64,000 bases of DNA from Candidatus Bathyarchaeia archaeon (GCA_049517415.1 JBEKSC010000011.1:15151-79150); one strand, 5' to 3'. Counted from the first letter of the stretch, positions 15,024 to 45,688 are shown. The notes: generated by a model from the letters alone, not told the origin. Made by a program: numbers and translations.

Positions 15024-17540
15024 TCAGAATCCTTCATGCTTGTAAAAGAGCCGCTTAGTTAGCTCCGCGCCCAGAATGTATAATCCAACAATAATCGCAG
15101 TGAAGACGAGGAAAGTAAGCGAGACAGGAACAAATCCAAACAACATTCCTAGAGCCGTAAAGGGTAGAAGACCAGTTGCAACTACTACGCATAATGTCGC
15201 AAACATAAGGTATTTGCTAGGCTTACTTCTGAAGAACGATTGTTGAGTACGAATGACTAACACAATCAGAGTGGCAGAAGCCACTGATTCAATGAACCAA
15301 CCTGTTCTGAACTGATCCGCTGTTGCATGCAAGATGAAGAGAAGTACACCGAATGTTGCGTAGTCGAAGACCGAGCTAAGGAGACCGAAAATCATCATGA
15401 AGTCCCGGATGAATTTTATGTTCCAGCGTCTGGGTTTCTGCACCATGCCACTGTCAACGCTATCCGTGGGTATGGCCATTTCAGGGAAGTCAGTCATGAG
15501 ATTTGTAAGCAGAACTTGCGTGGGCAGCAAGGGTAGGAAGGATAAGAATAGTGAAGCTCCCGCCATGCTGAACATGTTTCCGAAATTGGCACTCGCAGCC
15601 ATGAACACGTACTTGAGAGTGTTAGCGAAAGTTTTTCGACCATCTTGCACACCTTGTACTAGAACACCCAAGTCTTTCTCAAGTAATACGATGTCAGCAG
15701 CTTCCTTAGCTACGTCTACTGCAGTGTTCACTGAGATTCCGACGTCTGCAGCATGGAGTGCTGAGGCGTCATTGATTCCGTCGCCGATGAAGCCTACAAT
15801 ATATCCTGCTTTCTTGAACGCTAAGATAATTCGCTCTTTATGGTTGGGATCGACTTCAGCGAACACGTCGGTAACTTTGACTCGTTCAAGGAGCGCTTCG
15901 TCACTCATAATATGGAGTTCAGGGCCTGTAAGAACACGTGAACTGGTTAGCCCTACTTGTGTGCTCAGATATGCCGCGACGAATCTGTTGTCTCCCGTTA
16001 TGATCTTTAACGCAATTCCAAGGTTCTGTAGGTCTTGTAGAACTGTCTTAATCATCGGCTTAGGCGGATCAAACAATAGTAAGAAACCCAAGAAAGTCAT
16101 CTGAGTTTCTTGATCTTTGCCAATGCGGTCAGTAGGAACGTTCTTGTATGCCACACCGAGCAGCCGGAAACCTTGGCCGCTCAAGTCTTCGAAGCGTTGC
16201 TGGACTTGCTCGCGAACATCGGCAATTTGAACGAGCCCCTTCGTGGTCTCTGCTTGGGTGCAGGCGTCGAGTATGTTTTGTACCGCGCCCTTTGTCGTCA
16301 TGATGTGCATGTTATCCTTCGACACCAGGATACTGAGTCTCTTCCGGACAAAATCGTATGGGATTTCGTCCACTTTCTTGTAAGAGGTGAAGTCAAACGT
16401 ACTCTTCGCTCGAATTGCTTCGTCTATGGGGTTTGCAAAGCCGCTCTCAAAATTTGCATTCAGACATGCATATAGGAGAACCTTTTCGCTGGTGTTGCCT
16501 TCGAAATCAATGGTAGAATGGATCTCTACTTTTCCTTCGGTTAGGGTTCCGGTCTTGTCCGAACAGAGAAGGTTCATGCTGCCAAAGTTTTCAATTGAGA
16601 CAAGTCGTTTCACGATAACTTTCTGCTTTGCCATTTCCTTCGCGCCGTGCGCAAGATTTACGGTTACTATAGCGGGTAGTAGTTGTGGTGTTAAACCGAC
16701 CGCGAGTGCCACTGCGAATAGAAAGGACGAAAGGATTGGCCGTCCCAAGTAGGCGTTGACAGCGAAGATCACGATTGCCATGACTAGAGTGATTTCCATG
16801 AGGAGGTAGCCGAATTGCCTGACACCGTGCTCGAACCCGGTCTCTGGGGGTTTAAGCGCAAGACTTTCAGAGATTTTCCCGAATTCGGTTTTCTTCCCGG
16901 TTGTTACGACAAGAGCTTTGCCAGTACCGCTGACAACATGAGTTCCCATGAACAAAGTGTTCGAGCGAGCGCTCAAGGGTGCGTCGGGCGCAAGGACCCC
17001 GACGGATTTTTCTGCGGGGTAAGTCTCACCCGTAAGCGTCGCTTCATCAACGAAAAGATCCCTAACTTCGATAATTGCGCAGTCGCCGGGAACCATGTTC
17101 CCTGCGTTCAGTATCGCAACATCCCCTGGTACGATTTGCTCTAGAGGAATTTGGCTTGGTTCTCCGTTCCGTAGTGCAGTCGTATTGATCTGTACGATTG
17201 ATAGTAACTTCTTCACGGCATCGCTTGCGCCGCGCTCCTGCGAGAACCCGAGTAGACCGCTGACGAATACAATGGCTAAGATAATTGCGGCACTTGTTGG
17301 ATCCTGCAGAAAGATGGAAAGTATAGCTGCAACGAGCAAGATGAGTACGAGAGGGCTTCTGAATTGATTAAGTAGAAGCGTGATGGCGTCAGTTTTCTTC
17401 TTCTCCTTTAATAGATTATATCCATATGATGAGAGTCGTAGTTGAGCTTCGTTATTGGTCAAGCCTTCTGGGGCCGTCTTAAGCTGATCAAATAGCTCTG
17501 AGCTGGGAATGCTCCAGAAAGGTTTCTCATCAGAGCTGAT
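15024..17540 (-). CDS. mgtA: Mg2+-translocating P-type ATPase (start extended 5' of ORF call)
   Basis: TGETYP, LTPQLLP, DKTGTLT, GDGIND, SANFGNMFS, TGWFIES; N-terminal cation-ATPase motif begins upstream of 17462. Confidence 0.9.
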   Translation of the reverse strand: MSSDEKPFWSIPSSELFDQLKTAPEGLTNNEAQLRLSSYGYNLLKEKKKTDAITLLLNQFRSPLVLILLVAAILSIFLQDPTSAAIILAIVFVSGLLGFSQERGASDAVKKLLSIVQINTTALRNGEPSQIPLEQIVPGDVAILNAGNMVPGDCAIIEVRDLFVDEATLTGETYPAEKSVGVLAPDAPLSARSNTLFMGTHVVSGTGKALVVTTGKKTEFGKISESLALKPPETGFEHGVRQFGYLLMEITLVMAIVIFAVNAYLGRPILSSFLFAVALAVGLTPQLLPAIVTVNLAHGAKEMAKQKVIVKRLVSIENFGSMNLLCSDKTGTLTEGKVEIHSTIDFEGNTSEKVLLYACLNANFESGFANPIDEAIRAKSTFDFTSYKKVDEIPYDFVRKRLSILVSKDNMHIMTTKGAVQNILDACTQAETTKGLVQIADVREQVQQRFEDLSGQGFRLLGVAYKNVPTDRIGKDQETQMTFLGFLLLFDPPKPMIKTVLQDLQNLGIALKIITGDNRFVAAYLSTQVGLTSSRVLTGPELHIMSDEALLERVKVTDVFAEVDPNHKERIILAFKKAGYIVGFIGDGINDASALHAADVGISVNTAVDVAKEAADIVLLEKDLGVLVQGVQDGRKTFANTLKYVFMAASANFGNMFSMAGASLFLSFLPLLPTQVLLTNLMTDFPEMAIPTDSVDSGMVQKPRRWNIKFIRDFMMIFGLLSSVFDYATFGVLLFILHATADQFRTGWFIESVASATLIVLVIRTQQSFFRSKPSKYLMFATLCVVVATGLLPFTALGMLFGFVPVSLTFLVFTAIIVGLYILGAELTKRLFYKHEGF

Positions 17541-22305: not shown

Positions 22306-22572
22306 TCAACTGAGCGCTTCATCGGACTTTCTCATGTGATTTATGCGCTTTTTGGATGCTTCGTTTTGCAGTTTGGATAATTTGTCAATTTCGTCGAGCA
22401 GAACCTTGAGTTCCAGATTGTAAAGGCCGCATCTCGGGCAGCTCTCGTTGCCCTTCAGTCTTTCCCTTTGCTCAATTAGTCTGCTTACGATCCCATCATG
22501 AACTTCCAATGTGTGGTCAGCATACTTGCGCGGAATAGGTATTTCGGGCTTATGTTCTGGATTAGGATCAAC
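22306..22572 (-). CDS. Hypothetical small protein with CPRC and coiled coil (start uncertain)
   Basis: Only the 3' third of the 247-aa ORF looks protein-like; the remainder is antisense to the acidic gene and repeat. Confidence 0.45.
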   Translation of the reverse strand, partial: VDPNPEHKPEIPIPRKYADHTLEVHDGIVSRLIEQRERLKGNESCPRCGLYNLELKVLLDEIDKLSKLQNEASKKRINHMRKSDEALS

Positions 22573-22604
22573 CGCATGTCTTGTGTGTAGATGCTGGGAG
22601 CGTC

Positions 22605-22632
22605 TGGTGCGGGGGGGGAGTGGGATTCGAAC
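22605..22632 (-). repeat. tRNA-Leu-like 3' end remnant (att-like), copy 1
   Basis: Minus strand GTTCGAATCCCAC-TCCCCCCCCGC-ACCA, with C-run longer than a normal acceptor strand. Confidence 0.55.
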
Positions 22633-22742
22633 GGATGCAAGAGCCAACTCGACTTCGCCTAGTGGCAGAAGACCACAAGAAAAGGCCATTAATGATAGAG
22701 CACTCGTGAATAAGATAGAAGAATGCGGCGGAGGCGATACAT

Positions 22743-22961
22743 TTGAGTGAAGAGTCCGACGAAGAAGAGGAAAAGCAGCGTGAGGAAACGCAGGAAGAAG
22801 ATCAGCGAGAGCAGGAAGATGAGGATGAGAGTGAACGGGAAGGCGCTGATGAGAGTGCCGAAGAGGAGAGGGATGAGGATCGATTGGAGCAGGATGAAGA
22901 AGAGCGTGAACGGGAAGGGACACAGTTGAAGACCAAGAAAACCAAGAGAAACTCCCAATGA
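22743..22961 (+). CDS. Highly acidic low-complexity microprotein
   Basis: E/D-dominated 72 aa; GGAGG RBS upstream; diverged remnant of its 3' end at ~26566-26605. Confidence 0.6.
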   Translation: MSEESDEEEEKQREETQEEDQREQEDEDESEREGADESAEEERDEDRLEQDEEEREREGTQLKTKKTKRNSQ

Positions 22962-23016
22962 AACCATGATGATTCAGCAGCAGATTGGGCACATCATGGT
23001 CGGCGCGCGACCACGT
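22933..23016. repeat. Dispersed ~85-bp repeat, copy 1
   Basis: Core ATGATTCAGCAGCAGATTGGGCA shared with copies at 24.6, 26.6 and 42.5 kb. Confidence 0.85.
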
Positions 23017-23026
23017 ATGCCATGAT

Positions 23027-23223
23027 TCACTTCGCGATAAGACGTCCAATTATCGTAAGCATGATGCCCAGCACGTACCCCAACGTCGATGAGACATATC
23101 CTTTGAAATATTCATTGATTCGTATTCCTTGGTGCCAAGCGAGGCTCATGGGGATCATGAAACCGAACAGACCTAATCCGGCACCGGGTAAGTGCGGCTA
23201 TGAATATCAGCACCCTTGGGAAG
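23027..23223 (-). pseudogene. Truncated, internally deleted duplicate of membrane gene 26713-27138
   Basis: ~140 bp nearly identical to ~26732-26872, then a deletion and loss of the 5' part. Confidence 0.85.
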
Positions 23224-25609: not shown

Positions 25610-26278
25610 CTAGGCTGTAACCGTTAGTTTGTTCTCGACCTCAGATACGCCGGGAGCACAATAGGCAGCGTATTCGGCTTCATCATAATCTGCCCAAGAG
25701 CCAACGTTGCCATGTAGAATTACCTTGCTACCTGAAATTTCAACCTGAATCTTGTCGGCATCTCGAAGCAACCTGGCATTGCGCTTAAGTGCGTCTTCGA
25801 TTCCGTTCTTCACCTCGAACGCTTTCACCGTCGGCACCGGCGGTTTAATAGTGATCCTGTTGGTGACTCCCGAAATCCCCCACAAGTGACGTACGCTATC
25901 CTCCGCATACTCTTTTTGGTGATAGTGATTCACATCGCCACTCAGAGTGATCCAACCGTTCTGCACCAACACCTTGACGCGGTCACGCGGAACCCAAACA
26001 TTCCAGTCGATAGTGTTTTTCGCCGACCGGGCAATATCTTCGTCAGTGCGCTTGTAAGCGTCAGGGAGCCTGACCTTGATCTCTTCAGTTAATCCCTTTA
26101 CGCCTGAAATCCGCCTGACAGCGCGCTCGGCAGCCCACTTCATACTGTAGGTGTCAACATAGCCGTTCAACGTAACCACTCCATCCTTGACAGCAACACC
26201 AATCTCCGCCGCATGAATCGTCGGCTCCCACTTGAGCTCAGTCATAACATCTCGTTGCAATTCTGAATCCTTCTTCAC
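25610..26278 (-). CDS. Triple BON-domain (OsmY-like) protein
   Basis: Three repeats of V.V.DG.VTL.G.V...A...GV..V.N.L; GGAGGTGA RBS. Confidence 0.9.
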   Translation of the reverse strand: MKKDSELQRDVMTELKWEPTIHAAEIGVAVKDGVVTLNGYVDTYSMKWAAERAVRRISGVKGLTEEIKVRLPDAYKRTDEDIARSAKNTIDWNVWVPRDRVKVLVQNGWITLSGDVNHYHQKEYAEDSVRHLWGISGVTNRITIKPPVPTVKAFEVKNGIEDALKRNARLLRDADKIQVEISGSKVILHGNVGSWADYDEAEYAAYCAPGVSEVENKLTVTA

Positions 26279-26712: not shown

Positions 26713-27138
26713 TTACTTTGCGATGAGGCGCCCAATTATCGTAAGCATGATGCCCAGCACGTACCCCAACGTCGATGAGACATATCCTTTGAAATATTCA
26801 TTGATTGGTATTCCTTGGTGCCAAGCGAGGCTCATGGGGATCATGAAACCGAACAGACCTAATCCGGCACCGAGCATTACCAATGGCTTTCCTATTCTTG
26901 GAACGTGCAAAATCAAGAGGCCACTTATTATGACAGAGATTCCACCAAGGGCGGCTATGAATATCAGCACCTTGAAGATCGTGGCGAGGATCGGGGACGC
27001 GTCAACTGTTGGTTGAATGTACTTCAGGATTTCCTCTAGCAAAGGCTTCATGCCGGTGGTTCCTGCGACCACAAGAAGAGCACCGCCCACAATGCACAGG
27101 ATACCGGCTGTTTTGTTCCTGGGAGTCACAACCTCCAC
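26713..27138 (-). CDS. Four-TM small membrane protein
   Basis: Gly-rich TM helices; partial duplicate at 23.0-23.2 kb. Confidence 0.78.
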   Translation of the reverse strand: MEVVTPRNKTAGILCIVGGALLVVAGTTGMKPLLEEILKYIQPTVDASPILATIFKVLIFIAALGGISVIISGLLILHVPRIGKPLVMLGAGLGLFGFMIPMSLAWHQGIPINEYFKGYVSSTLGYVLGIMLTIIGRLIAK

Positions 27139-29070: not shown

Positions 29071-29238
29071 TCATCCATTACTCTTCATCTTAGCCTTCTT
29101 GAATTCTCCGTATTCTTGAAATGAATCAAACCCTGCATCCAAAAGCTCTTGTAGATTCTGTAGAGCCTCTTCATTAAGCGTAGTCTTCATGATTTCCAAC
29201 GTTTTCTGCATTACCTGTCTTGCCTCTTCCTCATTCAT
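29071..29238 (-). CDS. 55-aa helical microprotein (not in ORF track)
   Basis: MNEEEARQVMQKTLEIMKTTLNEEALQNLQELLDAGFDSFQEYGEFKKAKMKSNG; GGTGA RBS. Confidence 0.6.
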   Translation of the reverse strand: MNEEEARQVMQKTLEIMKTTLNEEALQNLQELLDAGFDSFQEYGEFKKAKMKSNG

Positions 29239-29535
29239 CTAATGATTCACCCAATCTTCCTGCATCTATCTTGAGATTCTTTACAGCTATGACCAACGGT
29301 ACTTAGTGAATAAGTCTATTCTTGTCGGAAATTAGGGTGGGTCATTACTTTGTGTATGCGCACCATTGATGCACACGCTGGCTGACGACTACTCGCGGCG
29401 GGTCAAATTACGACTGCCGCAACAACGATGATACGGGAAATCGAAAAGATTAGGCAGATATTTGCAATTAAATGAGAGAAAAGAGGATGAGCACAATCCG
29501 TGCTCAGTCTAGTCGGTTTAGTTTCGACGCTCGGA

Positions 29536-29697
29536 TCAGCGGTAGTACGGATACGAACCGTAGCCGTACCAAGGGGAGTTATAGTTCCCTCCATAGTATG
29601 GATAACCATACGAACCGTAGCCGTAACCGTACGAGGGAGCGAATAGATAGTCCGATATGTGACCGTAATAATTGCCTCCAATAACTACATATGACAT
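29536..29697 (-). CDS. Tyr/Gly-rich 53-aa peptide (not in ORF track)
   Basis: MSYVVIGGNYYGHISDYLFAPSYGYGYGSYGYPYYGGNYNSPWYGYGSYPYYR; GGAGGTGA RBS; 21 nt downstream of RHH gene. Confidence 0.8.
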   Translation of the reverse strand: MSYVVIGGNYYGHISDYLFAPSYGYGYGSYGYPYYGGNYNSPWYGYGSYPYYR

Positions 29698-29718
29698 TTC
29701 TTACTTCACCTCCCCTTC

Positions 29719-29886
29719 TTACGTCCCAGGAATTTCAAGTTTCGACCAATCCTTGGCTAGCCAGTCATTGACAGCTTCCTCTATCGCGCCGCTGAGGTCT
29801 CCTTTCTTGCCTCCAAGTCTCTTCACAATTGCAAGTCGCAGTCGGCGCTCAACGCCATCCGAGAGCACTACGTAGATTCTTCCCAA
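29719..29886 (-). CDS. Ribbon-helix-helix protein, paralog A (55 aa; not in ORF track)
   Basis: MGRIYVVLSDGVERRLRLAIVKRLGGKKGDLSGAIEEAVNDWL; TTG start; clear paralog of 30175-30429. Confidence 0.85.
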   Translation of the reverse strand: MGRIYVVLSDGVERRLRLAIVKRLGGKKGDLSGAIEEAVNDWLAKDWSKLEIPGT

Positions 29887-29923
29887 AGATTATCTGGCCG
29901 CACTGTATATGCGCAAAGCACGA

Positions 29924-29942
29924 TATAAACTTATATATTTAT
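29924..29942. promoter_or_regulatory. 19-bp AT-rich site upstream of RHH-A (promoter/operator)
   Basis: TATAAACTTATATATTTAT; exact reverse complement at 30472-30490. Confidence 0.6.
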
Positions 29943-30174
29943 CCATGTAGCTATATAACTGCGATTAATTTCAGTAGGTCTTGGGAGGAAATTTAGAATG
30001 CGTGTACACATCGGGCCTTTTGGGATCATGCTCATTGTTCTCATTCTTTGTTTGATTCTTCGGTAGAACTGAAGCTTCTTCGCGGTTACGGGCGATTCCC
30101 AAAACTACTCAGAGATACTGCGGTTCCAGAAATACGTGAAGAAGGGATTTGCGCCTACAAGTAAATAGAATGAC

Positions 30175-30429
30175 TTAGGGCATGCCAGAATCATTAGGGG
30201 ACCCATGAGTTCCCTGAGAAGCACGGGATCTGCCTGGCCTCTTTTCATGCAGCTGCTCGCGTACCCATTTGGTAATGTCGGCTTCTGTAGCATGTTTCTC
30301 CAACCATTCTTTGATAGCCACCTCGATAGCACTGCTTAGGTCGCCCTTCTTTCCGCCGAGAATTGTGACAACGGCCAGTCGGAGTCTGCGTTCCGTTTCA
30401 TCAGAAAGAACTATGTACATCTTACCCAA
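30175..30429 (-). CDS. Ribbon-helix-helix protein, paralog B
   Basis: MGKMYIVLSDETERRLRLAVVTILGGKKGDLSSAIEVAIKEWL: beta-strand + two helices. Confidence 0.85.
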   Translation of the reverse strand: MGKMYIVLSDETERRLRLAVVTILGGKKGDLSSAIEVAIKEWLEKHATEADITKWVREQLHEKRPGRSRASQGTHGSPNDSGMP

Positions 30430-30471
30430 AGTCTACACCCCTGAACGAAGGCCACGTTCAGCATTAACGAT

Positions 30472-30490
30472 ATAAATATATAAGTTTATA
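30472..30490. promoter_or_regulatory. 19-bp AT-rich site in divergent promoter of RHH-B and the membrane-protein operon
   Basis: ATAAATATATAAGTTTATA, inverted copy of 29924-29942. Confidence 0.6.
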
Positions 30491-30504
30491 AACACGATTC
30501 AACT

Positions 30505-30789
30505 ATGGTAAATCTTGACTTGATTGATATGCGCAAGGTCTATTCTATGATAGCGCCTTTACTTGGCGTAAGTCTGTTTCGAATCCTTAACGAAATAGGT
30601 GTAAATCAGAGTGCAAGTTCCATGGTTAGTTCCGCGTACGCGTGGCTGCTGACCCTGAACCCAATCGTTCTGATAATCCTAGGCGTAATCGTATTCATTG
30701 CGGGCAAGCTAGCGAAATGGATCGGCGTCATAATGATTATCGTCGGAATAATCTTCCTAGCCCTGCCGTACCTATTGCACCTCATTTAG
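30505..30789 (+). CDS. Small membrane protein
   Basis: C-terminal hydrophobic hairpin; start uncertain. Confidence 0.65.
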   Translation: MVNLDLIDMRKVYSMIAPLLGVSLFRILNEIGVNQSASSMVSSAYAWLLTLNPIVLIILGVIVFIAGKLAKWIGVIMIIVGIIFLALPYLLHLI

Positions 30790-30809
30790 AATCTAAAAGT
30801 GGATTCTTG

Positions 30810-31127
30810 ATGGCTAAAGCTTCCTTGGGGAAGCTTGCGTACCTTCTCGCATTAATCGGCGGAGTAATCCTTGTAATCCAAGGGCTCCTAAGTTTTGTGG
30901 GAATGGCTTTCATGATGTTCATGCCCTCGGTGCTTGGGTCTGTGGGTGGAGCCTTTTGGGGAATCATTGAAATCATCCTCGGAATCGTTGCCATCTACGG
31001 CTCTAAACGTGCTACCGACCTCACTTGGGATATTATTCTCATAGTCGTAGGCGTAATCGGAGGCGGCCTTGGTGGCATACTCATACTCATCGGCGGCATA
31101 GTCGGCTTAGCATCAAAGTACGTCTAA
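30810..31127 (+). CDS. Small Gly-rich multi-TM membrane protein
   Basis: MAKASLGK start 20 nt after the previous stop; 3-4 TMs. Confidence 0.75.
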   Translation: MAKASLGKLAYLLALIGGVILVIQGLLSFVGMAFMMFMPSVLGSVGGAFWGIIEIILGIVAIYGSKRATDLTWDIILIVVGVIGGGLGGILILIGGIVGLASKYV

Positions 31128-31154
31128 AATGATATCACGTGAGGTGAATCATTA

Positions 31155-31307
31155 ATGGATCTATTAGTGGCCATAATAGTGGTTATCGTGATCCTCTGGC
31201 TACTGGGGTTCATTGCTGGTATCGGCGGAGGTCTAATCCACATATTGCTCATTATCGCAGTCATAGTGATAATAGTTAGACTACTTCAAGGACGTCGTAT
31301 ATTGTAA
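31155..31307 (+). CDS. lmo0937-family (DUF5670) small membrane protein (not in ORF track)
   Basis: MDLLVAIIVVIVILWLLGFIAGIGGGLIHILLIIAVIVIIVRLLQGRRIL; GAGGTGA RBS. Confidence 0.88.
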   Translation: MDLLVAIIVVIVILWLLGFIAGIGGGLIHILLIIAVIVIIVRLLQGRRIL

Positions 31308-31321
31308 TAGAAGCCCTTGCT

Positions 31322-31540
31322 ATGAGTTATTCGAATAATTACTGCGACCAGTGCGGCGCCAACCTGGAACCCCAGTTCCAGTTCCATGAGAACCAGCCCA
31401 TGCTATTCTACTGCCTTCAGTGCAAAGCCCCTAGAACCGTCGTGCCCACAGAACATAAGCAGCGAACCGACTACGCATTGGCTGATTGTCCCATATGCGG
31501 TTCAAAAATGAGCACGTACGAAGCGAACCCTTCAGGATAG
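31322..31540 (+). CDS. Zinc-ribbon microprotein with three CxxC motifs
   Basis: CDQC, CLQC, CPIC. Confidence 0.75.
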   Translation: MSYSNNYCDQCGANLEPQFQFHENQPMLFYCLQCKAPRTVVPTEHKQRTDYALADCPICGSKMSTYEANPSG

Positions 31541-31578
31541 AAAAGACCTGAAAAAGAGATTCAAGGGGTGATTCCAAA

Positions 31579-31698
31579 ATGGCGAAGAAAAGTAGAGGAG
31601 GAAGAATGACTGCGGCTAAGAGGCGTGCCGCTAAGTCAACTGGTGGACGCGGTCCCGTGAGAAAACGTCGAGCAGGTCGAAACATCATGAGGACTTAA
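31579..31698 (+). CDS. 39-aa highly basic peptide (not in ORF track)
   Basis: MAKKSRGGRMTAAKRRAAKSTGGRGPVRKRRAGRNIMRT; GGGGTGA RBS at normal spacing. Confidence 0.72.
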   Translation: MAKKSRGGRMTAAKRRAAKSTGGRGPVRKRRAGRNIMRT

Positions 31699-31797
31699 GA
31701 GTAAAGGAGCAGGTGAACCTGCTAGACCTCCTCAGCCAGGTAAAGTACGTTTAGCTCACAAGGAGCTAATCTTCCTCATCGCGGATAGAAGTTGTCT

Positions 31798-32262
31798 TCA
31801 GAATAGTATCGATGCAAGAAGGAGAAGGAATGCTAAACCTACGGCGAGGCCAGTGAAGAATCCTGCCACATGGCGAAACGGGTGGCCAAAGAGAACACCA
31901 GTCAACGTCGTGCGCACACCGCTCAAGTAATCCGCCAGTGGAACCAGCATACTCAGAAAAACAATCCACCAAGCATATCGACCAAGCATTCCTACAACCT
32001 CCGGACTGAACGAAACATTGGCCCCACCAATGCCGATTAGCCCGATTGCAACACCAAACACGAGACCGAATACCACTGCCATGGAGATCTTCAACACAAA
32101 CAGACCCTGACCATCCTCTCCCTCCCTTCTCACTATTAATTGTAATACTGCGGCGGCTACAAACGCAATGATTGCAGTAGTAGAGTAAGGTAACGGTACC
32201 TCTTCGTCACCTACACCTTCCTGTCCGACGTTTATTCTGAAAGATTCAACGGCCTGATTCAT
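31798..32262 (-). CDS. Four-TM membrane protein
   Basis: Hydrophobic segments; start uncertain. Confidence 0.65.
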   Translation of the reverse strand: MNQAVESFRINVGQEGVGDEEVPLPYSTTAIIAFVAAAVLQLIVRREGEDGQGLFVLKISMAVVFGLVFGVAIGLIGIGGANVSFSPEVVGMLGRYAWWIVFLSMLVPLADYLSGVRTTLTGVLFGHPFRHVAGFFTGLAVGLAFLLLLASILF

Positions 32263-32283
32263 CGACTTGTGTAGAAACCCTTA

Positions 32284-32829
32284 TTGGAGCAAGCCTCTTG
32301 TTTTACCAGCCGAAAGATTTTGTCAGCTCAAGTGAAACAAGACATTAAGATTAAACCGAGTCTTGTGCCGTTCGTTTGGAAGGGGTTTTTGGTAGTGTTG
32401 TTGGGTCTCGTGGTTTTGGGTGTGAGCTTTCTTTTCAAGTCTTCACTTTCATCTGCCGGTTCTCTCCTCGGGTATGTGGCGTTGGGACTGATTGGCTTAG
32501 GTGTCTTGGGTATGTTGATTGGCCTTGTTCTTAGGAACGCGTTTACGTATTTGATTACTGATTCTGATGTTGTTGTGAAGAGGCAGTTGTTGCGTCGTAG
32601 TGTTCGGCGCATTCCCTTCGCGTCTATTAGTGATGTGCAGGTTTCGCAGAGTATTGTGGGTAGATTGGCGAAGTATGGGGACGTTGTTCCCGTGACAAAG
32701 AGTGGCTACGGCTTAGTTCGCGGGACGGAGCCAGGTGAAAAGATAGTCGCAGAAATGACCGGCGTCCCGAACCCGGACAAGGTAGCTGATTTGATAATGT
32801 CCAGATTACACGCCAGCAAAGTCACTTAG
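32284..32829 (+). CDS. Membrane-flanked bacterial PH-domain (bPH_2-like) protein
   Basis: Two TMs, then YLIT...IPFASISDVQVSQSIVGRL.KYGDV...VPNP. Confidence 0.82.
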   Translation: MEQASCFTSRKILSAQVKQDIKIKPSLVPFVWKGFLVVLLGLVVLGVSFLFKSSLSSAGSLLGYVALGLIGLGVLGMLIGLVLRNAFTYLITDSDVVVKRQLLRRSVRRIPFASISDVQVSQSIVGRLAKYGDVVPVTKSGYGLVRGTEPGEKIVAEMTGVPNPDKVADLIMSRLHASKVT

Positions 32830-33074
32830 CACCCGCGACCTTTCGATTATTGGCGGCGAGTAAAGGGTACACGCATGACCTCCGAATCATGATCCATGAG
32901 TTGCTCGTTATCGCAGTGAAACAGGACCAGTCATACGGCCCTTCCTCTCTTATTCGCCATTCCCCGGGGTCTCACGTATGACCTAAAACGAATCCAATCG
33001 CTACATAATGAGTCGCGTTGGTGGGCAGCCTTATGTTACACCACCACTACTATCACCACTACTGGCAAAATGAA

Positions 33075-33236
33075 ATGACTTTGATGAAATGCACCAACTG
33101 CGGCTACGTTCAAAACTACGCCGGCCGTCGCAATCTGACCTACACGTGCACCAACTGCAAACGCTCAGACATCGACCAACGCGAAGCCGCTAGCGCCTTC
33201 CTGAAAGTGAAGCGGAAGGAGGCGAAAAAAGAATGA
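33075..33236 (+). CDS. Zinc-ribbon microprotein
   Basis: CTNC...CTNC; ATGA overlap with the next gene. Confidence 0.7.
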   Translation: MTLMKCTNCGYVQNYAGRRNLTYTCTNCKRSDIDQREAASAFLKVKRKEAKKE

Positions 33237-33589
33237 CAATGTCGTACTATCAGCCTCCTAAACAATACTACAACTATCAGCCGCCTACCCAGTATTATCA
33301 ACCGCCTGCTCAGTACTATCAGCAGCCTACTCAGTACTATCAGCCGCCTACCCAGTATTACCAGCCACCTGCTCAGTACTATCAACCGCCCACCCAATAC
33401 TATCAGCCACCCACCGAGATGTACTCCTATCAGCCGCCTACCCAGTCCTACTATCAGCCAGCTACCCAGTACTACAATTATCAGGCACCTACCCAATACT
33501 ACAACTATCAGCCCCCGAGCGAGATGTACTCCTACCAGCCTGCTGCTCAGAAATACTCGTATCAACCACAAGCATACAGGGTCCAGTGA
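33233..33589 (+). CDS. Tyr/Gln/Pro tandem-repeat protein (YYQPPTQ)n
   Basis: ~14 heptad/nonad units with synonymous codon variation; AAGGAGG RBS. Confidence 0.82.
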   Translation: MTMSYYQPPKQYYNYQPPTQYYQPPAQYYQQPTQYYQPPTQYYQPPAQYYQPPTQYYQPPTEMYSYQPPTQSYYQPATQYYNYQAPTQYYNYQPPSEMYSYQPAAQKYSYQPQAYRVQ

Positions 33590-34962: not shown

Positions 34963-35244
34963 TTACTTTACCGGTATCCTCTTGCCGCGGGGTTTTGTCT
35001 TGAAAGGTAGGTTAAGTGTTAGTAGGCCGCTAGCGAATCTTGCTTTAGCCTTTTTCGGGTCTACCTCATGCGCTAGGGTATAGCCGCTTGAGTATTCGAA
35101 GTCTTCTCTGGGAGCCTCAACGCAGAAATCATCACTGCTCACATCGACGGCCACATTTTCTTTCTTCACACCTGGAAGTTCAACTTGGATCGTGAATTCT
35201 TTGTCATCGTGATATGCGGACCAGAAGTTTGGAACGACCTTCAC
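34963..35244 (-). CDS. Small heat shock protein Hsp20
   Basis: ELPGVKKENV, AKARFASGLLTLNLP, C-terminal IPV motif. Confidence 0.9.
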   Translation of the reverse strand: MKVVPNFWSAYHDDKEFTIQVELPGVKKENVAVDVSSDDFCVEAPREDFEYSSGYTLAHEVDPKKAKARFASGLLTLNLPFKTKPRGKRIPVK

Positions 35245-35424: not shown

Positions 35425-36681
35425 ATGTCTATGAATTTTGGAAGAATTATGGGGATTCCGATCAGGATTCACTACACGCTGTGGTTCGTTTTCATTCTTA
35501 TCGCCTGGTCGCTCGCGGTTGGATACATGCCTCATCAGTACCCAGGCCTCAGCACGGTGACTTACTGGGCCATTGGCATTGCGTCCGCAATAATTCTCTT
35601 CGTTTCCGTCCTTGTGCATGAGCTCTCTCATTCTTACATAGCGAAGAAGAATGGGCTGCCAATTGCAAGGATTACGCTCTTCTTCTTCGGCGGTGTCTCT
35701 GAGATGACTGAAGAGCCTAAAGACCCAGGCTTAGAGGTTCGTATGGCTGTCGCGGGTCCCTTGATGAGTTTCCTAATCGCGGGCGTTTTGGGTGCACTTT
35801 GGTACCTGGGAGGATCCGCTCACGCACCGGTCGCGATAATTGCTGTACTCGGCTACGCGGCGCTAATCAACGGTGCTCTCGGCGTTTTCAATTTACTTCC
35901 AGCATTCCCGTTGGATGGTGGTAGAGTATTCCGTGGAAGCATCTGGAAGCGTTCGAACAATTTTGTCGGAGCCACTAGGACCGCTATAAGAGTTAGTGAG
36001 GGCATTTCGTTGCTAATGATGTTTGGAGGGTTCGTATTCATAATACTCGGAGACTTCGTTGATGGGCTATGGGTAATAGTGCTAGGTTGGTTCATCAGAT
36101 CCGGGGCGCAAACCAGTCTCAAGCAAACGCTTGTTGGCGAAGCTCTTTTGGGGGTCTCGGTTGGCGACATCATGACTAGAGAGGTGTTGACTGTCCCGCC
36201 AGAGGTCACTGTTCAGCAGCTCGTCTCAAATTATCTCCTTGTGCACCGCCATGGAGGCTACCCTGTTGTGAAGAACGGTGAGGTTCTGGGCGTAGTCACA
36301 TTGCAGTCTGTGCGGGCTGTTCCTAAGGAAAAGAGGGATTTTGTGACTGTTCGGGAAGCGATGGTTCCATTTGAACGCACGGTAATGGTGGAGGCTTCAG
36401 TCACCGCCTTGGATGCAATGCAGAAGATGGCTCGGAACAAAGTCGGGCGTGTCTTAGTGATCGACGGGGGTCGACTGGTCGGCATAGCAACTCGTGAGGA
36501 CGTTGTCAGCACGATCCAGACGCGGCAAGAGCTCGAGCTGGGCCCTGGTCTCGGTCCCTCGGGTTTGCCCTCTTCCCAGTATCCTCGCATTCAAGCCGGG
36601 CATTGCGTCCAATGCGGTGCCCTTTTGCCCGCCGACGTCAAATTCTGTCCCCAATGCGGCGCTAAACAAAACATATCATAA
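35425..36681 (+). CDS. Site-2 (M50) metalloprotease + CBS pair + zinc ribbon
   Basis: HELSH, AGP, FNLLPAFPLDGGR, two CBS domains, CVQC...FCPQCG. Confidence 0.93.
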   Translation: MSMNFGRIMGIPIRIHYTLWFVFILIAWSLAVGYMPHQYPGLSTVTYWAIGIASAIILFVSVLVHELSHSYIAKKNGLPIARITLFFFGGVSEMTEEPKDPGLEVRMAVAGPLMSFLIAGVLGALWYLGGSAHAPVAIIAVLGYAALINGALGVFNLLPAFPLDGGRVFRGSIWKRSNNFVGATRTAIRVSEGISLLMMFGGFVFIILGDFVDGLWVIVLGWFIRSGAQTSLKQTLVGEALLGVSVGDIMTREVLTVPPEVTVQQLVSNYLLVHRHGGYPVVKNGEVLGVVTLQSVRAVPKEKRDFVTVREAMVPFERTVMVEASVTALDAMQKMARNKVGRVLVIDGGRLVGIATREDVVSTIQTRQELELGPGLGPSGLPSSQYPRIQAGHCVQCGALLPADVKFCPQCGAKQNIS

Positions 36682-37212
36682 TTGGAACCTCCGGTCGAAA
36701 TTGATACTTCTCGATTCAGCCGCTAAGGCACTACGGTCTCTGCTGTTGAATTCGCTCAAAATCGGTTGGTAGATTGCGATCTAACCTGTCTTCCAAGCCC
36801 TTCCCGGCTTACGTTAAAGTCTACCGCGTCCTGCCGCTAGCTTGACCCGCTCTACTGGCCATTTTCTTTCGTTTCTTCTGCCATTCAGGTTTCGTCAAAT
36901 CAAGACCCTTCCATCAGGTTCAGTAACACGCCGCGAACTGAAGAGTCTTTCCTGTTATCCTTTGCCTCGGAGTGCGAAGCACAGGATTTTGCTTCCGTTA
37001 TGCCATCAGGGGTAGTTCTCGCTATTCGGTGGTAAGATTTAGTTCCCTGTAATCTCAAAGATCAGCCTCAAGGCGTTATCGAGTCAAAGGCGGGAGCAAC
37101 GGTCGCCCTAATCCCAAACGTTTGTAGAAGAGTCCTGACGTAGAGGTAATGGAATCAGAAATCGCAAACGGTGTAGAGAGAGTTGACTACAGAGGGGAAC
37201 GAGACTCACACG

Positions 37213-37332
37213 ATGTATTGTTCAAATTGCGGTAAGAAGATCGAAAAACCCGTTTTACACGAGGGGTACGCGTTCTGCTCAGATCAATGCCATCAATCTT
37301 TCATACAACCGCGACGTGGCCCGAACCCCTGA
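37213..37332 (+). CDS. TRASH/YHS-like metal-binding microprotein (39 aa; not in ORF track)
   Basis: MYCSNCGKKIEKPVLHEGYAFCSDQCHQSF: CxxC...FCSxxC. Confidence 0.7.
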   Translation: MYCSNCGKKIEKPVLHEGYAFCSDQCHQSFIQPRRGPNP

Positions 37333-37762
37333 CCGCATTTGGATCGAAATGGGAAAGGTTCTTTTCGCGCGCCTGCTTCAAATCTGTGAGATCTCGATTT
37401 GACGAAAGGAGTCTCTCAGCAGTAGCTAGTGTAGGGATGGGCTTTGAAAGGAAAAGAGAGACGTAGAGTCAGAAAAATGAGAAGGACCAGTCGCAGAAAG
37501 GAAGAGAGGAGAGAAAACAAGAAAAGAACAGAACGCGGGCTACCCAATCCTATGACAAAAAGGAATTACGAAGAAGAATCGCAAATTCCTAGCTGCGTGA
37601 TATAATTGCCTCAAACTCAAGAGAATAAGACGAGAAGAAGAAAGCGATTGAAAACGAAGAGGGCTCACTACTAAAACGAAGGGTTGCTTCGAGCGCGACA
37701 CGAGAAAAGCTGCATTATTCGGTCATCCTACGGGAAACGTTCGGATATTCTGAGTGGAGCAT

Positions 37763-39949: not shown

Positions 39950-40177
39950 AGCTTTTCAACGGTATGAATCCTTAAGAGAATACTATCAATAAAAAGAGGA
40001 CGCAGACCACTGAACAAAAGAACCCATTTCTACCGGAAAACATTCGAGAAATTAGCGATCGGACTACCCCTCTGAGTCCCGACGGTTGGCAGTCAAGCGA
40101 AAAACCCGCAGACGTAGGAGGTGGAAGAGGATTTATGTAAGAGGCCTTACCTTGGGTAACAAGTCTGATGATCTGAT

Positions 40178-42567: not shown

Positions 42568-43200
42568 TAACAGAGGGTAATAAGGTAACGTCAAGTCGGT
42601 AATGTAACATTGACGGTTGGTAGTTTCTCCTGTAACAAACTAGTTGGTGGCTAGGTACCGTTACCACAGGAAAGAAATAGTAGAGCGGGCGACGCGCCCT
42701 TTCGTTACGAGTCACCTACTCAACTTAGGCTAGAAAGCTAAGTTAGGTAGAATCTGCCGCAGCATGAAGGGGTAGCTGGGATACCCAATCCATCCGGCAC
42801 CAGCATGGAGTAGGAAAACGAATTCCACTAGATTTATCGTTGTTATTTTCACCTCACTTGTCGCTGTATCGCGGAAAATTCAGTTAAGCCTTAGTCTCAT
42901 GCTTTCCGTAGGATATTGTGACTCGCGGTGCCGAATTGTCTTACGAGCGAGTCGCATGTCATCATGCGGATACTTGTGCATGCTTTTATCTAATGGACGA
43001 CTTGGCGTTCTCAATCGCCCAGATTAGCCCCCGAAATCAACCGATTTTATCCATCACCTTTTTTCCGTGCACTAACGGTTGCACACCATGCAGCTTAGGT
43101 GACGGTTTTATCGAACCTATAGAAACTATGGTAGGTGACGAAGAGGTAACGTTATCGTCAAGTCCTCGGTTGAAAAGCATATTTCGAGCCGGCGAATCCA

Positions 43201-45465
43201 TTGCACGCAATCATCATCGTTACTGGCATTGTCCAAGGCGTAGGGTTCAGGCCATTCATCTATAGGATCGCCAAGCGCCAAGAACTCCGAGGATTCGTTC
43301 GGAACCGCGCTGATGCCGTCGTCGAAATCAGCGTGGAAGGCGAAAAGTCTCGAATCGACGCGTTCCTGCACTCACTGAGGGAGGAAAAGCCGCCCCTTGC
43401 ACGATTAGATAGCGTACAGGTCGAATACCCTGAAACCGAATTGGGTCTAGCCGACTTCACCATTGAAAAAAGCAGCCAAGAGCGAACCAAGAGCGGTTCG
43501 GTCATCCCGCCCGATATCGCAATCTGCGACGACTGCCTCAAAGAGCTGAGGTCCCCCGGAGATAGGAGGCATCGATACTTTTTCATCACCTGCACAAACT
43601 GCGGCCCCAGATACACAACGATTGTCGGGGTTCCCTATGACCGACCCAACACAACCCTGAACCAGTTCCCAATGTGCCCCAAGTGCCGAGTCGAATACAC
43701 AAATCCCGGAGACCGAAGGTTCCATGCCCAGACCATAGCATGCCCAATCTGTGGGCCTAAAGTCACCTTGCTCAACAACTCTGGGAACCCAATGGATGTC
43801 GTCGAGCCAATCAGAGAAGCCGGAAGATTACTCTCAGAGGGCAAAACTTTGGCCCTCAAGGGAAATGGTGGATTCCACCTTGCGGCTTCGACACTTCAAG
43901 ACGACCCCATTGAAAGGTTGAGGCGAAGTAAAGAGAGAAGAAGCAAACCTTTCGCGATAATGGCACGTAGCCTTGACTCTATTCTAGCGTTCGCTGAGGT
44001 CCGTTCTTGCGAACGTGAATTACTCGAATCCTACGTTCGACCCATAGTTCTGCTGCGCCGCAAAGAGCCTTTCCCGCTTTCCTCTCTCATCTCGCCGGGA
44101 CTGGATACCGTAGGAGTGATGTTGCCCTACACGGGGATGCATTACCTGATTTTCGATTCGACAAGCGACCCAGCGCTCATAATGACGAGTGCCAACGCAC
44201 CTAACGAACCAATAATCACTGACAACAGGAAAGCGATTCAGAGACTCGGCACCGTAGTAGACTACTTTCTAGTTCATGATCGAGAGATTGCGCAACGGGC
44301 AGATGACTCAGTAATCCGATTCATAGGCGATGAACCTACCCCTATTCGACGGTCACGAGGATACGCACCCGTCCCGATAGTTCTGTCAAATCCATCTAAG
44401 ATGAGAGCTCTTGCGTTCGGCGCAGAGCTGAACGTTACTGCGTGCATGACTCTTGACAACAAGGCATACTTGACTCAGCACATTGGAGACACAGAAACGG
44501 TCGAGACAGCGAAATTCCTGGAAGCCGCAGTGGCACATTTGGGTCGGCTTATCGGATTCGAACCAGAAACCATAGCCTGTGATCTTCACCCGAAGTTCAC
44601 GACCACCAAGATTGCCGAGCGTATGTCGAAAGAACACAATGTCCCATTGCGAAGAATCCAGCACCACCATGCTCACGCGGGTTCACTTATGGCGGAACAT
44701 TCCTTGGACGCAATAGTTGGCATCGTTTGCGACGGCTTCGGATTAGGCTACAAGAACGAAGCTTGGGGAGGAGAGATCTTCGTCTGCCACGCCTCCCAAG
44801 TCAGGAGAGCCGCACATTTAGAAGAGCAACCGATGGTTGGCGCAGATCTAGCGACTCGATATCCCGCGAGAATGGCGGCAGGCATTCTCAGAGATGAACC
44901 CACTATTCAGGCTTGGCTGAAGGCTAATGCATCGCACTTGCCTCACGGTGAATCTGAGATCCCTATTGTCATGCGCCAGCTTGACAGAAAGGATTTCATC
45001 TGGACTTCAAGCTGTGGGCGAGTTCTGGATTCGATAGCCGCGATTTTGGGCATTAGTTACGAAAGAACGTACGAGGGAGAACCTGCCATGAAACTGGAAG
45101 CTTACTCAAGAGGAGGCGCGGATAGACTGAACATCAAACCCGAGATCGATGGCGAAGTTATCAAAACCACAAACATGGTTCACAACATATACGATCAGAA
45201 AACGAAAATCGCTCTTCCGGATCTGGCATTCTCTGCGCATGCATACCTGGGTCGAGCTTTGGCAAATGCTGCCATCACGATAGCGGAGGAAGAAGGTATC
45301 AAGGTAGTGGGCTTTTCTGGCGGTGTGGCTTTGAACGAGATTATCTCGCTCACGATTCGGAAGCTTGTTTCCGACGCGGGATTTCGCTATGTTAGTAATG
45401 TGGCGGTTCCCCCTGGAGATGGTGGAGTATCTTTCGGTCAGGCTTACCTAGCCTCACTCCAGTAA
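43201..45465 (+). CDS. hypF: Carbamoyltransferase HypF
   Basis: GIVQGVGFRP acylphosphatase, two CxxC-x18-CxxC fingers, QHHHAH, DGFG, GDGG. Confidence 0.97.
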   Translation: MHAIIIVTGIVQGVGFRPFIYRIAKRQELRGFVRNRADAVVEISVEGEKSRIDAFLHSLREEKPPLARLDSVQVEYPETELGLADFTIEKSSQERTKSGSVIPPDIAICDDCLKELRSPGDRRHRYFFITCTNCGPRYTTIVGVPYDRPNTTLNQFPMCPKCRVEYTNPGDRRFHAQTIACPICGPKVTLLNNSGNPMDVVEPIREAGRLLSEGKTLALKGNGGFHLAASTLQDDPIERLRRSKERRSKPFAIMARSLDSILAFAEVRSCERELLESYVRPIVLLRRKEPFPLSSLISPGLDTVGVMLPYTGMHYLIFDSTSDPALIMTSANAPNEPIITDNRKAIQRLGTVVDYFLVHDREIAQRADDSVIRFIGDEPTPIRRSRGYAPVPIVLSNPSKMRALAFGAELNVTACMTLDNKAYLTQHIGDTETVETAKFLEAAVAHLGRLIGFEPETIACDLHPKFTTTKIAERMSKEHNVPLRRIQHHHAHAGSLMAEHSLDAIVGIVCDGFGLGYKNEAWGGEIFVCHASQVRRAAHLEEQPMVGADLATRYPARMAAGILRDEPTIQAWLKANASHLPHGESEIPIVMRQLDRKDFIWTSSCGRVLDSIAAILGISYERTYEGEPAMKLEAYSRGGADRLNIKPEIDGEVIKTTNMVHNIYDQKTKIALPDLAFSAHAYLGRALANAAITIAEEEGIKVVGFSGGVALNEIISLTIRKLVSDAGFRYVSNVAVPPGDGGVSFGQAYLASLQ

Positions 45466-45475
45466 CCGAACCAAT

Positions 45476-45688
45476 CTAACGCCAATGAGCCAACGTTCGC
45501 TTGGCTTCTTCAATATCCATGACTTTCAGTACGTAGCCTGCGTGTACCAGAACGTAATCTCCGACCTTTGCGTCGGTTAGTGCGATGTTTGCCGTGACTA
45601 TTGTTCCACCGCCTAGATCGACTTTCGCGATTTCGCCTTGTATTTGGACTATTCTGCCGACCTGTGCGAGGTCGTATGGGTCGCTCAT
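45476..45688 (-). CDS. HypC/HybG/HupF family paralog lacking the N-terminal Cys
   Basis: AKVGDYVLVHAGY motif; N-terminus MSDPYD. Confidence 0.8.
   Translation of the reverse strand: MSDPYDLAQVGRIVQIQGEIAKVDLGGGTIVTANIALTDAKVGDYVLVHAGYVLKVMDIEEAKRTLAHWR

Follow-up and report, generated by a model that had tools for sequence, protein, structure and literature searches.

In bacteria, protein families of the lmo0937, CsbD and OsmY/BON type belong to the sigmaB/sigmaS regulons, and to our knowledge little is known about general stress or the resting state in archaea, which work without sigma factors or spores. The Bathyarchaeia are abundant and mostly uncultured carbon cyclers of wetlands and sediments. 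Among the bacterial genes, Listeria lmo0937 has been listed as sigmaB-dependent (PMC2813243, PMC7690807), while another report assigns it to PrfA and states that regulation by sigmaB had not been known before (PMC3225968). Two papers (PMC10294668, PMC5437024) describe CsbD as a general stress protein.

We analyzed a stretch of 64,000 nucleotides (the window) from a Candidatus Bathyarchaeia archaeon, in agreement with the archaeal host assumed in a first-pass annotation. The interval 29071-33589 contains 14 small genes, seven of which encode fewer than 60 aa; the annotation had counted about 13 in roughly 4.5 kb, and all ORFs that it named are in place, as are the BON, Hsp20, acidic-peptide and site-2 protease-CBS genes that it placed nearby (Table 1). 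ORFs of at least 150 aa cover just 33% of the interval, which ranks 20 among 1618 windows of the genome; such sparse coverage is unusual, not unique.

Table 1. Coordinates of the genes and sites of the interval and of its neighbors
Feature	Position	Strand	Description
acid72	22743-22961	+	Glu/Asp-rich hydrophilic 72-aa peptide; recurrent neighbor
BON	25610-26278	-	triple-BON (OsmY-like) protein; PF04972
m141	26713-27138	-	membrane protein; in relatives usually directly behind the YG gene
acid55	29071-29238	-	55-aa mildly acidic helical peptide; accessory, rarely linked
YG53	29536-29697	-	Tyr/Gly-rich peptide directly behind RHH1
RHH1	29719-29886	-	ribbon-helix-helix protein, lineage-expanded family
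18-bp AT-rich site	29925-29942		in divergent RHH1/mem22 promoter; kept in relatives
mem22	29998-30066	+	22-aa single-helix membrane peptide; weakly supported; ribosome-binding site, homologues in relatives
RHH2	30175-30429	-	RHH1 paralogue with C-terminal extension
promoter A	30464-30508	+	divergent RHH2/mem86 promoter; includes second 18-bp site
mem86	30529-30789	+	small membrane protein (hydropathy), first gene of main operon
mem105	30810-31127	+	Gly-rich multi-pass membrane protein; paralogues elsewhere in genome
lmo0937	31155-31307	+	lmo0937/DUF5670 family membrane protein
Zn72	31322-31540	+	zinc-ribbon protein, three invariant CxxC pairs; lineage-restricted
basic39	31579-31698	+	Arg/Lys/Gly-rich peptide, net +15, RGG/GGR motifs
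mem94	31798-32082	-	small membrane protein; accessory, unlinked in some relatives
bPH_2 protein	32284-32829	+	membrane protein, bacterial PH domain, PF03703 E 4.5e-13
Zn53	33075-33236	+	single C4 zinc ribbon, basic tail; overlaps YQP118 start
YQP118	33233-33589	+	Tyr/Gln/Pro heptad-repeat protein (21-nt repeats); ends conserved, repeat number variable
Hsp20	34963-35244	-	PF00011
site-2 protease (M50)	35425-36681	+	CBS pair and zinc ribbon; recurrent neighbor
25-aa basic peptide	36821-36898	-	conserved; dN/dS 0.18

Most of these genes are real, with the frame kept in relatives under purifying selection (dN/dS 0.11–0.35), and they are co-located there, as the annotation had required. In pooled comparisons with relatives basic39 is the most constrained gene of the set, hereafter the kit (0.11), followed by RHH2 (0.17), RHH1 (0.19), lmo0937 (0.20), Zn72 and mem105 (both 0.23), YG53 (0.30), mem86 (0.31) and bPH_2 (0.35), the start of which may lie ~36 nt downstream. 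Values for YQP118 (0.11, a rough figure from aligned repeats) and Zn53 (0.30, from a single homologue) fall in the same range; mem22 (0.67) and mem94 (0.68) are less well supported, both on few sites. A longer 154-aa frame over mem94 was rejected owing to stops in both homologues, which leaves the shorter frame as the gene. Among the neighbors, acid72 has a dN/dS of 0.25 vs 0.78 for the overlapping alternative frame. The 25-aa peptide, which we take to resemble the KGG stress motif, matched no Pfam family, KGG (PF10685) included, at E up to 10, in a search whose sensitivity is limited by the very short query.

Our preferred reading, to which we give a probability of roughly 0.55, is a modular, laterally exchanged general-stress or stationary-phase kit of a wetland-soil Bathyarchaeia lineage. 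It would be best read as an archaeal equivalent of the small-protein clusters that bacteria use in general stress or stationary phase, with new peptide families added, and probably helps cells to survive once growth stops. The only named stress family inside the interval is lmo0937, whose assignment by the annotation holds, as the protein scores over the curated cut-offs of NF033488 (45 vs 30 bits) and PF18919 (46.6 vs 23.5 bits). The other marker families are OsmY/BON, for which the neighboring BON protein reaches 67 bits with the OsmY model, below its cut-off of 174, and CsbD, found in relatives only: the host genome has no CsbD match, 11 of 105 genomes do, and two of the three matches over the cut-off lie inside kit loci, with CsbD also in 17 of 67 metagenome loci. 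Repeated neighbors of the kit are BON, Hsp20, the site-2 protease and a thermosome copy, and ferritin, Usp and VIT1 adjoin some RHH or kit copies. Most of the remaining cargo (Zn72, basic39, YG, YQP, mem86 and mem105) consists of peptide families that matched no known family in our profile searches; Zn72 gave generic zinc-ribbon hints only, mem86 weak DUF3185/LiaF-TM hints below cut-off, and acid55 no family over cut-off.

The recurrent unit consists of an RHH gene, divergent from promoter A and mem86-mem105-lmo0937-Zn72-basic39; RHH1-YG lies on the opposite strand, and Zn53-YQP often comes after basic39. Its lmo0937-Zn72-basic39 core is tightly linked: lmo0937 precedes Zn72 in 45 of 56 metagenome loci, and basic39 follows Zn72 in 47 of 57. 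Zn72 occurs in 11 of the 105 genomes of the order and basic39 in 12, as well as in 52 of 67 metagenome loci. Zn53 is present in 8 of those 67, near-identical acid55 homologues in two of the 67 and in none of the genome loci, and the bPH_2 gene is linked to the kit in many relatives at varying positions. Many relatives, including near-complete genomes, yielded no kit, which is thus dispensable. In four relatives (G011, G078, G079 and G048) synonymous divergence (pS) is 0.24–0.33 for the kit vs 0.82–0.87, which is saturated, for dnaK; in G079 both lie on one contig. Because kit pS is low where dnaK pS is saturated, the kit has apparently been exchanged laterally between genera and families of related wetland and soil archaea, with a patchy distribution. 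Kit loci are heavily reshuffled, with partial duplications; the reshuffling and the apparent movement had escaped the first-pass annotation. Microprotein genes that standard length filters drop thus appear to move, at low synonymous divergence, between archaeal genera and families.

The same lateral exchange, patchiness and reshuffling with partial duplications would suit cargo or a remnant of a mobile element, in which the RHH proteins were plasmid-type autoregulators and the small genes served maintenance (a toxin-antitoxin-like RHH-YG or mem22 pair, exclusion, transfer) and not host stress. The closest solved RHH structure, PDB 2k6l, which we take to be a Xanthomonas plasmid protein, and an IS110-like transposase, identified by eye in one relative's cluster, also point this way. 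However, no integrase matched on the window's contig, which ends at the window's right edge with the far flank outside it; the window holds no tRNA that could mark an attachment site; and no viral hallmark gene was found, the 14 proteins having no PHROG match and one short weak match each in viral contigs. Moreover, kits lie on chromosome-sized contigs, and their cargo includes host-benefit stress families and no toxin family known to our searches. We consider a mobile-element origin of this kind quite unlikely.

The two RHH proteins are 60% identical, and the window contains exactly two copies of an 18-bp upstream site, oppositely oriented (29925-29942, plus strand; 30472-30489, minus strand), vs 0.03 expected from shuffling, which bears out the paralogous pair with a shared site proposed at first pass. 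The site, conserved in relatives and overlapping TATA-like sequence, is a candidate RHH operator; it failed to single out a regulon in a genome-wide search, and the short motif ATAT-NN-ATAT defines none either, most of 30 unselected sites lying inside genes. RHH1 and RHH2 match Pfam RHH_6 (PF16762) at E 1.2e-5 and 1.1e-4 (26.2 and 23.2 bits), under the 27-bit cut-off, in the former case just so, and the match to 2k6l (E 1.6e-6) spans the GGxKGDLS turn. Modeling of RHH1 predicted an intertwined homodimer with the N-terminal strand in the interface and helices at 10-24 and 31-44 (0.47 vs 0.00 for the best control; runs agreeing in at least 92% of contacts, pLDDT at least 74), passing a mark that 20 of 30 solved homodimers and 1 of 23 monomers reach, although this pass may reflect likeness to solved dimers. 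The match to 2k6l and the predicted dimer are in common with RHH_6 and 2k6l; the differences are Pfam scores below the cut-off and, in this lineage, up to 13 matches per genome, mostly standing alone on chromosomes, as other RHH copies in relatives mostly do. Twin RHH control, which the annotation presented as a design, found no support: the pair is a variable duplication of an RHH-plus-promoter cassette that is single in G014 and G002, and RHH control of the kit is a proposal. A YG gene lies directly behind 14 of the 25 RHH genes with room to see.

In relatives, homologues of promoter A stand before lmo0937, before BON and before a basic-peptide/z98/YQP operon, as a rule with an RHH gene on the divergent side. 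Where an RHH gene diverges from mem86, promoter A lies before mem86 in 22 of 23 loci. lmo0937 has its own copy in 19 of 25 loci where it is neither behind mem86/mem105 nor divergent from a kit gene, and in none of the 22 loci where transcription would reach it from mem86/mem105; given the common descent of the copies and the near-duplicates among the metagenome contigs, these counts are not independent events. The host genome has a single strong copy, and its BON gene has none; CsbD uses another promoter. A heat-shock-type box (GTTACC-N3-GGTAAC-like) stands before thermosome, dnaK, Hsp20-like and HtpX-like genes in the host, which encodes four TBP and four TFB proteins; because no such box lies within 29071-33589, the kit is not part of the heat-shock regulon. 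Of the earlier proposal of a co-regulated stress or resting-state module, the module is our best reading (lmo0937, the relatives' CsbD, BON, Hsp20 and a promoter shared by unrelated genes), while its RHH design found no support.

Six of the 14 genes encode membrane proteins (by hydropathy), bPH_2, BON and the site-2 protease are envelope-linked, and in several relatives a large exported protein of 730–890 aa lies behind mem105; this protein is present in 18 of 67 metagenome loci. Promoter A could then drive the small membrane proteins and, in relatives, the large protein for aggregation, biofilm formation or surface-layer remodeling, with the stress genes as fellow travelers. The large protein is, however, absent from the clusters of the window, G014 and G021, and such a module would leave Zn72 and basic39, both soluble and strongly constrained, unexplained; we consider an envelope or adhesion module improbable.

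The Tyr-rich peptides invite two further comparisons. YG53 is 32% Tyr with five [GS]Y[GS] motifs, its homologues (40–96 aa) keeping both ends while repeat number varies; YQP118 is 27% Tyr and 24% Gln. CotC and CotT are Tyr-rich Bacillus spore-coat proteins, likewise small and of low complexity, and the annotation had suggested a cross-linkable layer of this type, that is, Tyr-rich peptides cross-linked into the outer coat of a resting cell. Besides composition, Cys-rich ends in some homologues would fit, as would the one multicopper-oxidase domain that the rest of the genome offers, matched weakly at 25 bits. By hydropathy, in place of a dedicated signal-peptide predictor, neither peptide has a hydrophobic signal or anchor (best 19-residue values 0.41 for YG53 and -1.27 for YQP118). 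Searches for SpoIVA and CotE, with controls that score in Bacillus subtilis, gave no match in this genome scored 100% complete. There is also no Pfam or NCBIfam coat-family match, no oxidase or peroxidase in the cluster and, in contrast to CotC/CotT, no mother-cell compartment. Given the lack of an export signal and of SpoIVA/CotE, a spore-type coat is highly improbable.

FET proteins (FUS/EWS/TAF15) are described as joining a Tyr-driven low-complexity domain, RGG repeats and a zinc finger (PMC10634919), and the kit holds the same element types: Tyr-rich [GS]Y[GS] or Y/Q/P sequence, RGG-type basic sequence and C4 zinc fingers. These lie in separate microproteins with no RRM and no homology, unlike the single FET chain that also carries an RRM, and the likeness is one of composition. 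A split FET-like condensate, in which Tyr-rich stickers, basic39 and zinc ribbons co-condense with DNA, RNA or polyphosphate and store the nucleoid or ribosomes in dormancy, is rather unlikely; it could sit inside the general-stress reading as its mechanism. About ten metagenome loci carry Zn53-YQP or YQP behind basic39 in the same orientation; fixed ends around a changing number of repeats are what one would expect of a material and not of an enzyme; and a ppk1/ppk2/ppx cluster lies 14-24 kb away. But that linkage to polyphosphate was seen in the host genome and its closest relative only, Tyr-rich ORFs are also scattered elsewhere in the host genome, G021 and G079 have loci where basic39 and Zn72 come without any Tyr peptide in view, and so high a Tyr density could equally yield insoluble fibers. 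A more elaborate version, a mobile archaeal dormancy cassette with a FUS-like grammar split over the operon (YG53, YQP118, basic39, zinc ribbons) forming a protective cytoplasmic condensate and switched on through a promoter of its own that an alternative TBP/TFB pair would recognize, much as a stress sigma factor does, we regard as unlikely. If Tyr/Arg peptides did co-condense with nucleic acid, the FET condensate grammar would have a prokaryotic form divided among separate peptides; judging by composition, DNA compaction and phase separation may both occur. Hc1/Hc2 are histone H1-like/protamine-like condensing peptides and Sra is a stationary-phase ribosome-associated basic peptide; basic39 is likewise very short and Arg/Lys-rich, one homologue has AAKK repeats, and profile searches gave no family match.

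In the general-stress reading, promoter A would fire on growth arrest, as caused by exposure to oxygen, by drying or by starvation where the water table moves; the back-to-back RHH dimer and perhaps one of the alternative TBP/TFB pairs would tune it. Remodeling of the envelope would fall to the small membrane proteins, BON, bPH_2 and, in relatives, the large exported protein; Hsp20, an extra thermosome and acidic or CsbD hydrophilins would protect proteins; basic39 may bind DNA or RNA by charge; and the Tyr-rich repeats could self-associate in the cytoplasm as a protective matrix. The kit is a compact candidate for an archaeal stress or resting-state system: its promoter is defined, a regulator can be proposed and the length of several of its peptides puts them within reach of synthesis. 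It differs from the bacterial sigmaB/sigmaS sets in its archaeal host, which has no sigma factor, and in its shared TATA-type promoter back-to-back with an RHH gene; most of its cargo matched no family, and its joint induction is a prediction. It shares with them the clustering of lmo0937, BON, Hsp20 and, in two relatives' clusters, CsbD, together with many uncharacterized small membrane and hydrophilic proteins.

The interval at 29071-33589 contains 14 small ORFs, in a source genome (G000) of 2.65 Mb with a completeness score of 100%; the window corresponds to G000 C11:15151-79150. Family scans placed lmo0937 (NCBIfam and Pfam) and bPH_2, a PH-domain membrane protein, over the cut-off and the ribbon-helix-helix family RHH_6 slightly below it; no match over the cut-off was obtained for the Tyr/Gly peptide YG53, the Tyr/Gln/Pro-repeat protein YQP118, the Arg/Lys/Gly peptide basic39, or the membrane proteins mem22, mem105 and mem94. 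When the ORFs were compared with relatives' loci, nine genes showed pooled dN/dS of 0.11-0.35, with most change at third positions and antisense-frame values of 0.6-2.5. YQP118 and the zinc ribbon Zn53 were concordant on smaller data, mem22 and mem94 were weakly supported as genes, and the strongest constraint in the kit was detected for basic39. The small ORFs are therefore real genes. The structure model of the zinc ribbon Zn72 was of low confidence (pLDDT 60) and in a fold search resembled nothing beyond generic zinc ribbons (Z at most 3.1); atlas matches of Zn72 and basic39 were all below 0.9. The BON homologue list was taken up by close relatives, most of them unnamed, and gave no indication of where BON came from. 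An Rfam search gave no match, and a scan for sigma-70 promoters and terminators stayed at chance level. Further conserved microgenes lie at 36821-37674, usually beside a thermosome copy (Table).

Table. Coordinates of sequence features in the window and in related loci
Feature	Location	Remark
GTTACC-N3-GGTAAC	window 40146-40160, 56390-56404	
GTTACC-N3-GGTAAC	G000 C11:12195, C14:13547, C48:5207, C6:8088, C23:35151/35183	
25-aa basic peptide	within window 36821-37674	dN/dS 0.18
49-aa zinc finger	within window 36821-37674	conserved microgene
Two Arg/Lys-rich peptides	within window 36821-37674	frames shift among relatives
36-aa Arg/Lys-rich ORF	G000 C53:874-984	immediately behind second BON gene
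Other Tyr-rich small ORFs	G000 C19:40235-40609, C30:3648-3881, C4:117685-117999, C20:44129-44365	
acid72/m141-junction sequence, ~70-90 nt	window 22934, 24621, 26620, 42499	four copies
730-890-aa exported protein	L024:6282-8957	and homologues
Polyphosphate cluster	window 5356-17462	complete: ppk1, ppk2, ppx, two CHAD proteins, CYTH; with P-type cation ATPase
Hydrogenase maturation genes	window 42918-48204	hypF/D/E-like, by eye; no hydrogenase in window
154-aa frame	window 31798-32262	rejected: shadow frame
247-aa frame	window 22306-23049	rejected: shadow frame
60-aa frame	across acid72 (22743-22961)	rejected: shadow frame

Co-location also held in relatives. The order YG←RHH1, (mem22), RHH2← →mem86-mem105-insert-lmo0937-Zn72-basic39 was found in G004, G011, G013 and G019, with a single RHH gene in G014 and G002 and none in view in G021. 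In relatives the insert carries genes for a 730-890-aa exported protein, a CsbD-like protein and bPH_2; the exported protein, behind mem105 in several relatives, gave only a weak NPCBM_assoc match and has no counterpart in the window's cluster. We also analyzed 69 metagenome loci, reduced to 67 by removal of the two weakest (19-residue matches). Of the 56 loci with room upstream of Zn72, 45 have lmo0937 before it and nine have mem86, and basic39 followed Zn72 in 47/57, counts that are not independent because the contigs include near-duplicates. Tyr-rich peptides were present in 34/67 loci, CsbD and thermosome in 17/67 each, Zn53 in 8/67, and the mildly acidic peptide acid55 in 2/67. In about ten loci basic39 continues straight to Zn53-YQP or YQP, while in the window mem94 and bPH_2 separate them. 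Among YG and YQP homologues the residues at both ends are conserved, and the number of repeats differs; the Tyr-rich ORFs scattered through G000 include one YQP paralogue and one Cys-ended form of YG whose conserved RVGNCLMICQ tail is also present in relatives.

Kit modules occur in rearranged order between genomes. The window itself carries broken duplicates of the junction between the neighbouring genes acid72 and m141, confined in G000 to this contig, which look like debris of local duplications. The G014 assembly breaks within two bPH_2 copies (contig ends C1, C2, C3), which implies kit segments duplicated about 280 kb apart.

The common 18-bp site is real and sits in both divergent promoters (RHH1/mem22 and RHH2/mem86). 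A 45-bp matrix, built from five RHH2/mem86-type promoter copies of which none came from the metagenome loci, though they are related to some of these, identified 43 distinct sites in those loci: 18 ahead of mem86, 14 of lmo0937, three of RHH, one each of BON and mem22, and six other sites, three of which head a basic 39-aa peptide, z98 and YQP. Of 25 loci in which lmo0937 stands free, 19 had a separate copy ahead of it, against none of 22 in which it is read through from mem86/mem105 and none of six in which it diverges from another kit gene; mem86 had a copy in 22/23 loci with a divergent RHH versus 1/21 others. These copies ahead of lmo0937 and mem86 are the best evidence that the kit may be co-regulated, and they descend from few events. 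G000 has one strong copy, the element overlaps a TATA-like sequence, the common upstream word of G000 is TTAAATA-like, and the CsbD promoter is of a different type. A 16-bp operator matrix at score 13 gave 36 genome matches versus 45 in shuffled DNA, the top ones being training sites only. In the loci from which ATAT-NN-ATAT was derived, 19/23 sites fell in the 120 nt ahead of kit genes; the motif was rejected as a regulon marker, since most of 30 sites fetched from five whole genomes were intragenic. The intergenic ones include heat-shock TATA regions, and per-genome counts across the family did not clearly separate carriers from non-carriers.

The RHH assignment is supported by a match to PDB 2k6l (E 1.6e-6) and by a homodimer model; a fold search with the monomer model gave no significant match. 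The homodimer model scored 0.47 versus 0.00 for the best control (contact agreement at least 92%, pLDDT at least 74), a mark reached by 20/30 solved homodimers and 1/23 monomers, which RHH may pass by likeness. Matches to the family were obtained in 27/61 relatives, at most 13 in any one genome. Among those listed of 40 further fetched copies, most stand alone in varied contexts, and some adjoin ferritin, Usp, BON or additional TBP genes; the distance between such TBP genes and RHH paralogues is below 3 kb in G006. G000 encodes four TBP (C6, C8, C12, C50) and four TFB genes (C4, C15, C34, C52). RHH control of the kit cargo is plausible by position.

The inverted repeat GTTACC-N3-GGTAAC precedes four thermosome genes, dnaK, and an HtpX-like and an Hsp20-like gene (both named by eye); it is a candidate operator for the heat-shock response in this lineage. 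An RHH paralogue in G010 also bears it; no copy occurs in the interval 29071-33589.

A Zn72 scan of species-representative genomes returned 16 loci: 11 full-length, all on Candidatus Bathyarchaeia/Bathyarchaeota records, and five with 19-residue matches in Alphaproteobacteria, treated as chance. The isolate labels of the carriers presumably stem from surveys of peatland and soil. Of the order's 105 genomes, 13 matched Zn72 (11 at 81-100% identity, two weak), with basic39 in 12, lmo0937 in 18 (16 over cut-off) and CsbD in 11 (three over cut-off); many are incomplete, so absence means not found in those searched. Zn72 is nearly without relatives in wider collections (four clusters), with two matches at E up to 1e-10 in 1.84 billion representatives.

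Beyond the genus, the kit is carried by G078 and G079 (another genus) and G048 (another family). Their Zn72 is 86-89% and their basic39 85-92% identical to the copy in the window, against 68% for DnaK and 38-43% for PRPP synthetase. Pooled synonymous divergence (pS) of kit genes was 0.24 in G011, 0.33 in G078, 0.28 in G079 and 0.27 in G048, the pool excluding matches below 65% identity, including G078 lmo0937 (pS 0.80) and G048 RHH (0.89); dnaK pS was 0.82-0.87 in these genomes. In the closest relative, G014, kit pS was 0.17 versus 0.26 for dnaK. These differences, with a core-gene baseline of two genes only, suggest that the kit was laterally exchanged. Evidence against mis-binning comes from G079, where the kit and the divergent dnaK share a contig; the neighbouring permease gene has 90% DNA-level identity. 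The vehicle was not found: the window's contig has no integrase, no tRNA was found in the window, kit proteins matched no phage families, and viral contigs gave no real match.

OsmY is a sigmaS gene. Listeria lmo0937 stands in a sigmaB-dependent table (PMC2813243) and is listed among down-regulated genes in tables of a sigB-mutant study (PMC7690807); it is lowered by a sigmaB inhibitor, yet termed PrfA-regulated (PMC3225968). CsbD/YjbJ is described as a general stress protein (PMC10294668, PMC5437024) whose family also occurs in archaea (PMC5437024). Given these stress families and the recurrent kit neighbours (BON, Hsp20, site-2 protease, a thermosome copy, acidic and basic hydrophilic peptides), the best reading is a general-stress or stationary-phase kit, to which we give a probability of roughly 55%; the new peptides' roles are inferred from charge and composition. 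A polyphosphate cluster also adjoins the kit in G014, and the hydrogenase maturation genes are missing there at the corresponding place.

The spore-type coat considered in the first-pass annotation is unlikely, as the Tyr-rich peptides lack a hydrophobic export segment and the genome has no SpoIVA/CotE match. A Tyr/Arg condensate split across separate microproteins has a low probability. Ingredients that FET proteins unite in a single chain (PMC10634919) occur in the kit on separate microproteins, and its polycation would be basic39, the gene under the strongest constraint. Both basic39 and Zn72, however, are also found in loci with no Tyr peptide in view. In open-access PMC and bioRxiv we found no description of the cluster, some genes of which could be listed in supplementary MAG annotation tables. 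Compared with known systems, the general-stress reading would place the kit among general-stress small-protein clusters, a known kind; new are the archaeal host, several unnamed peptide families and an apparent mobility across families.
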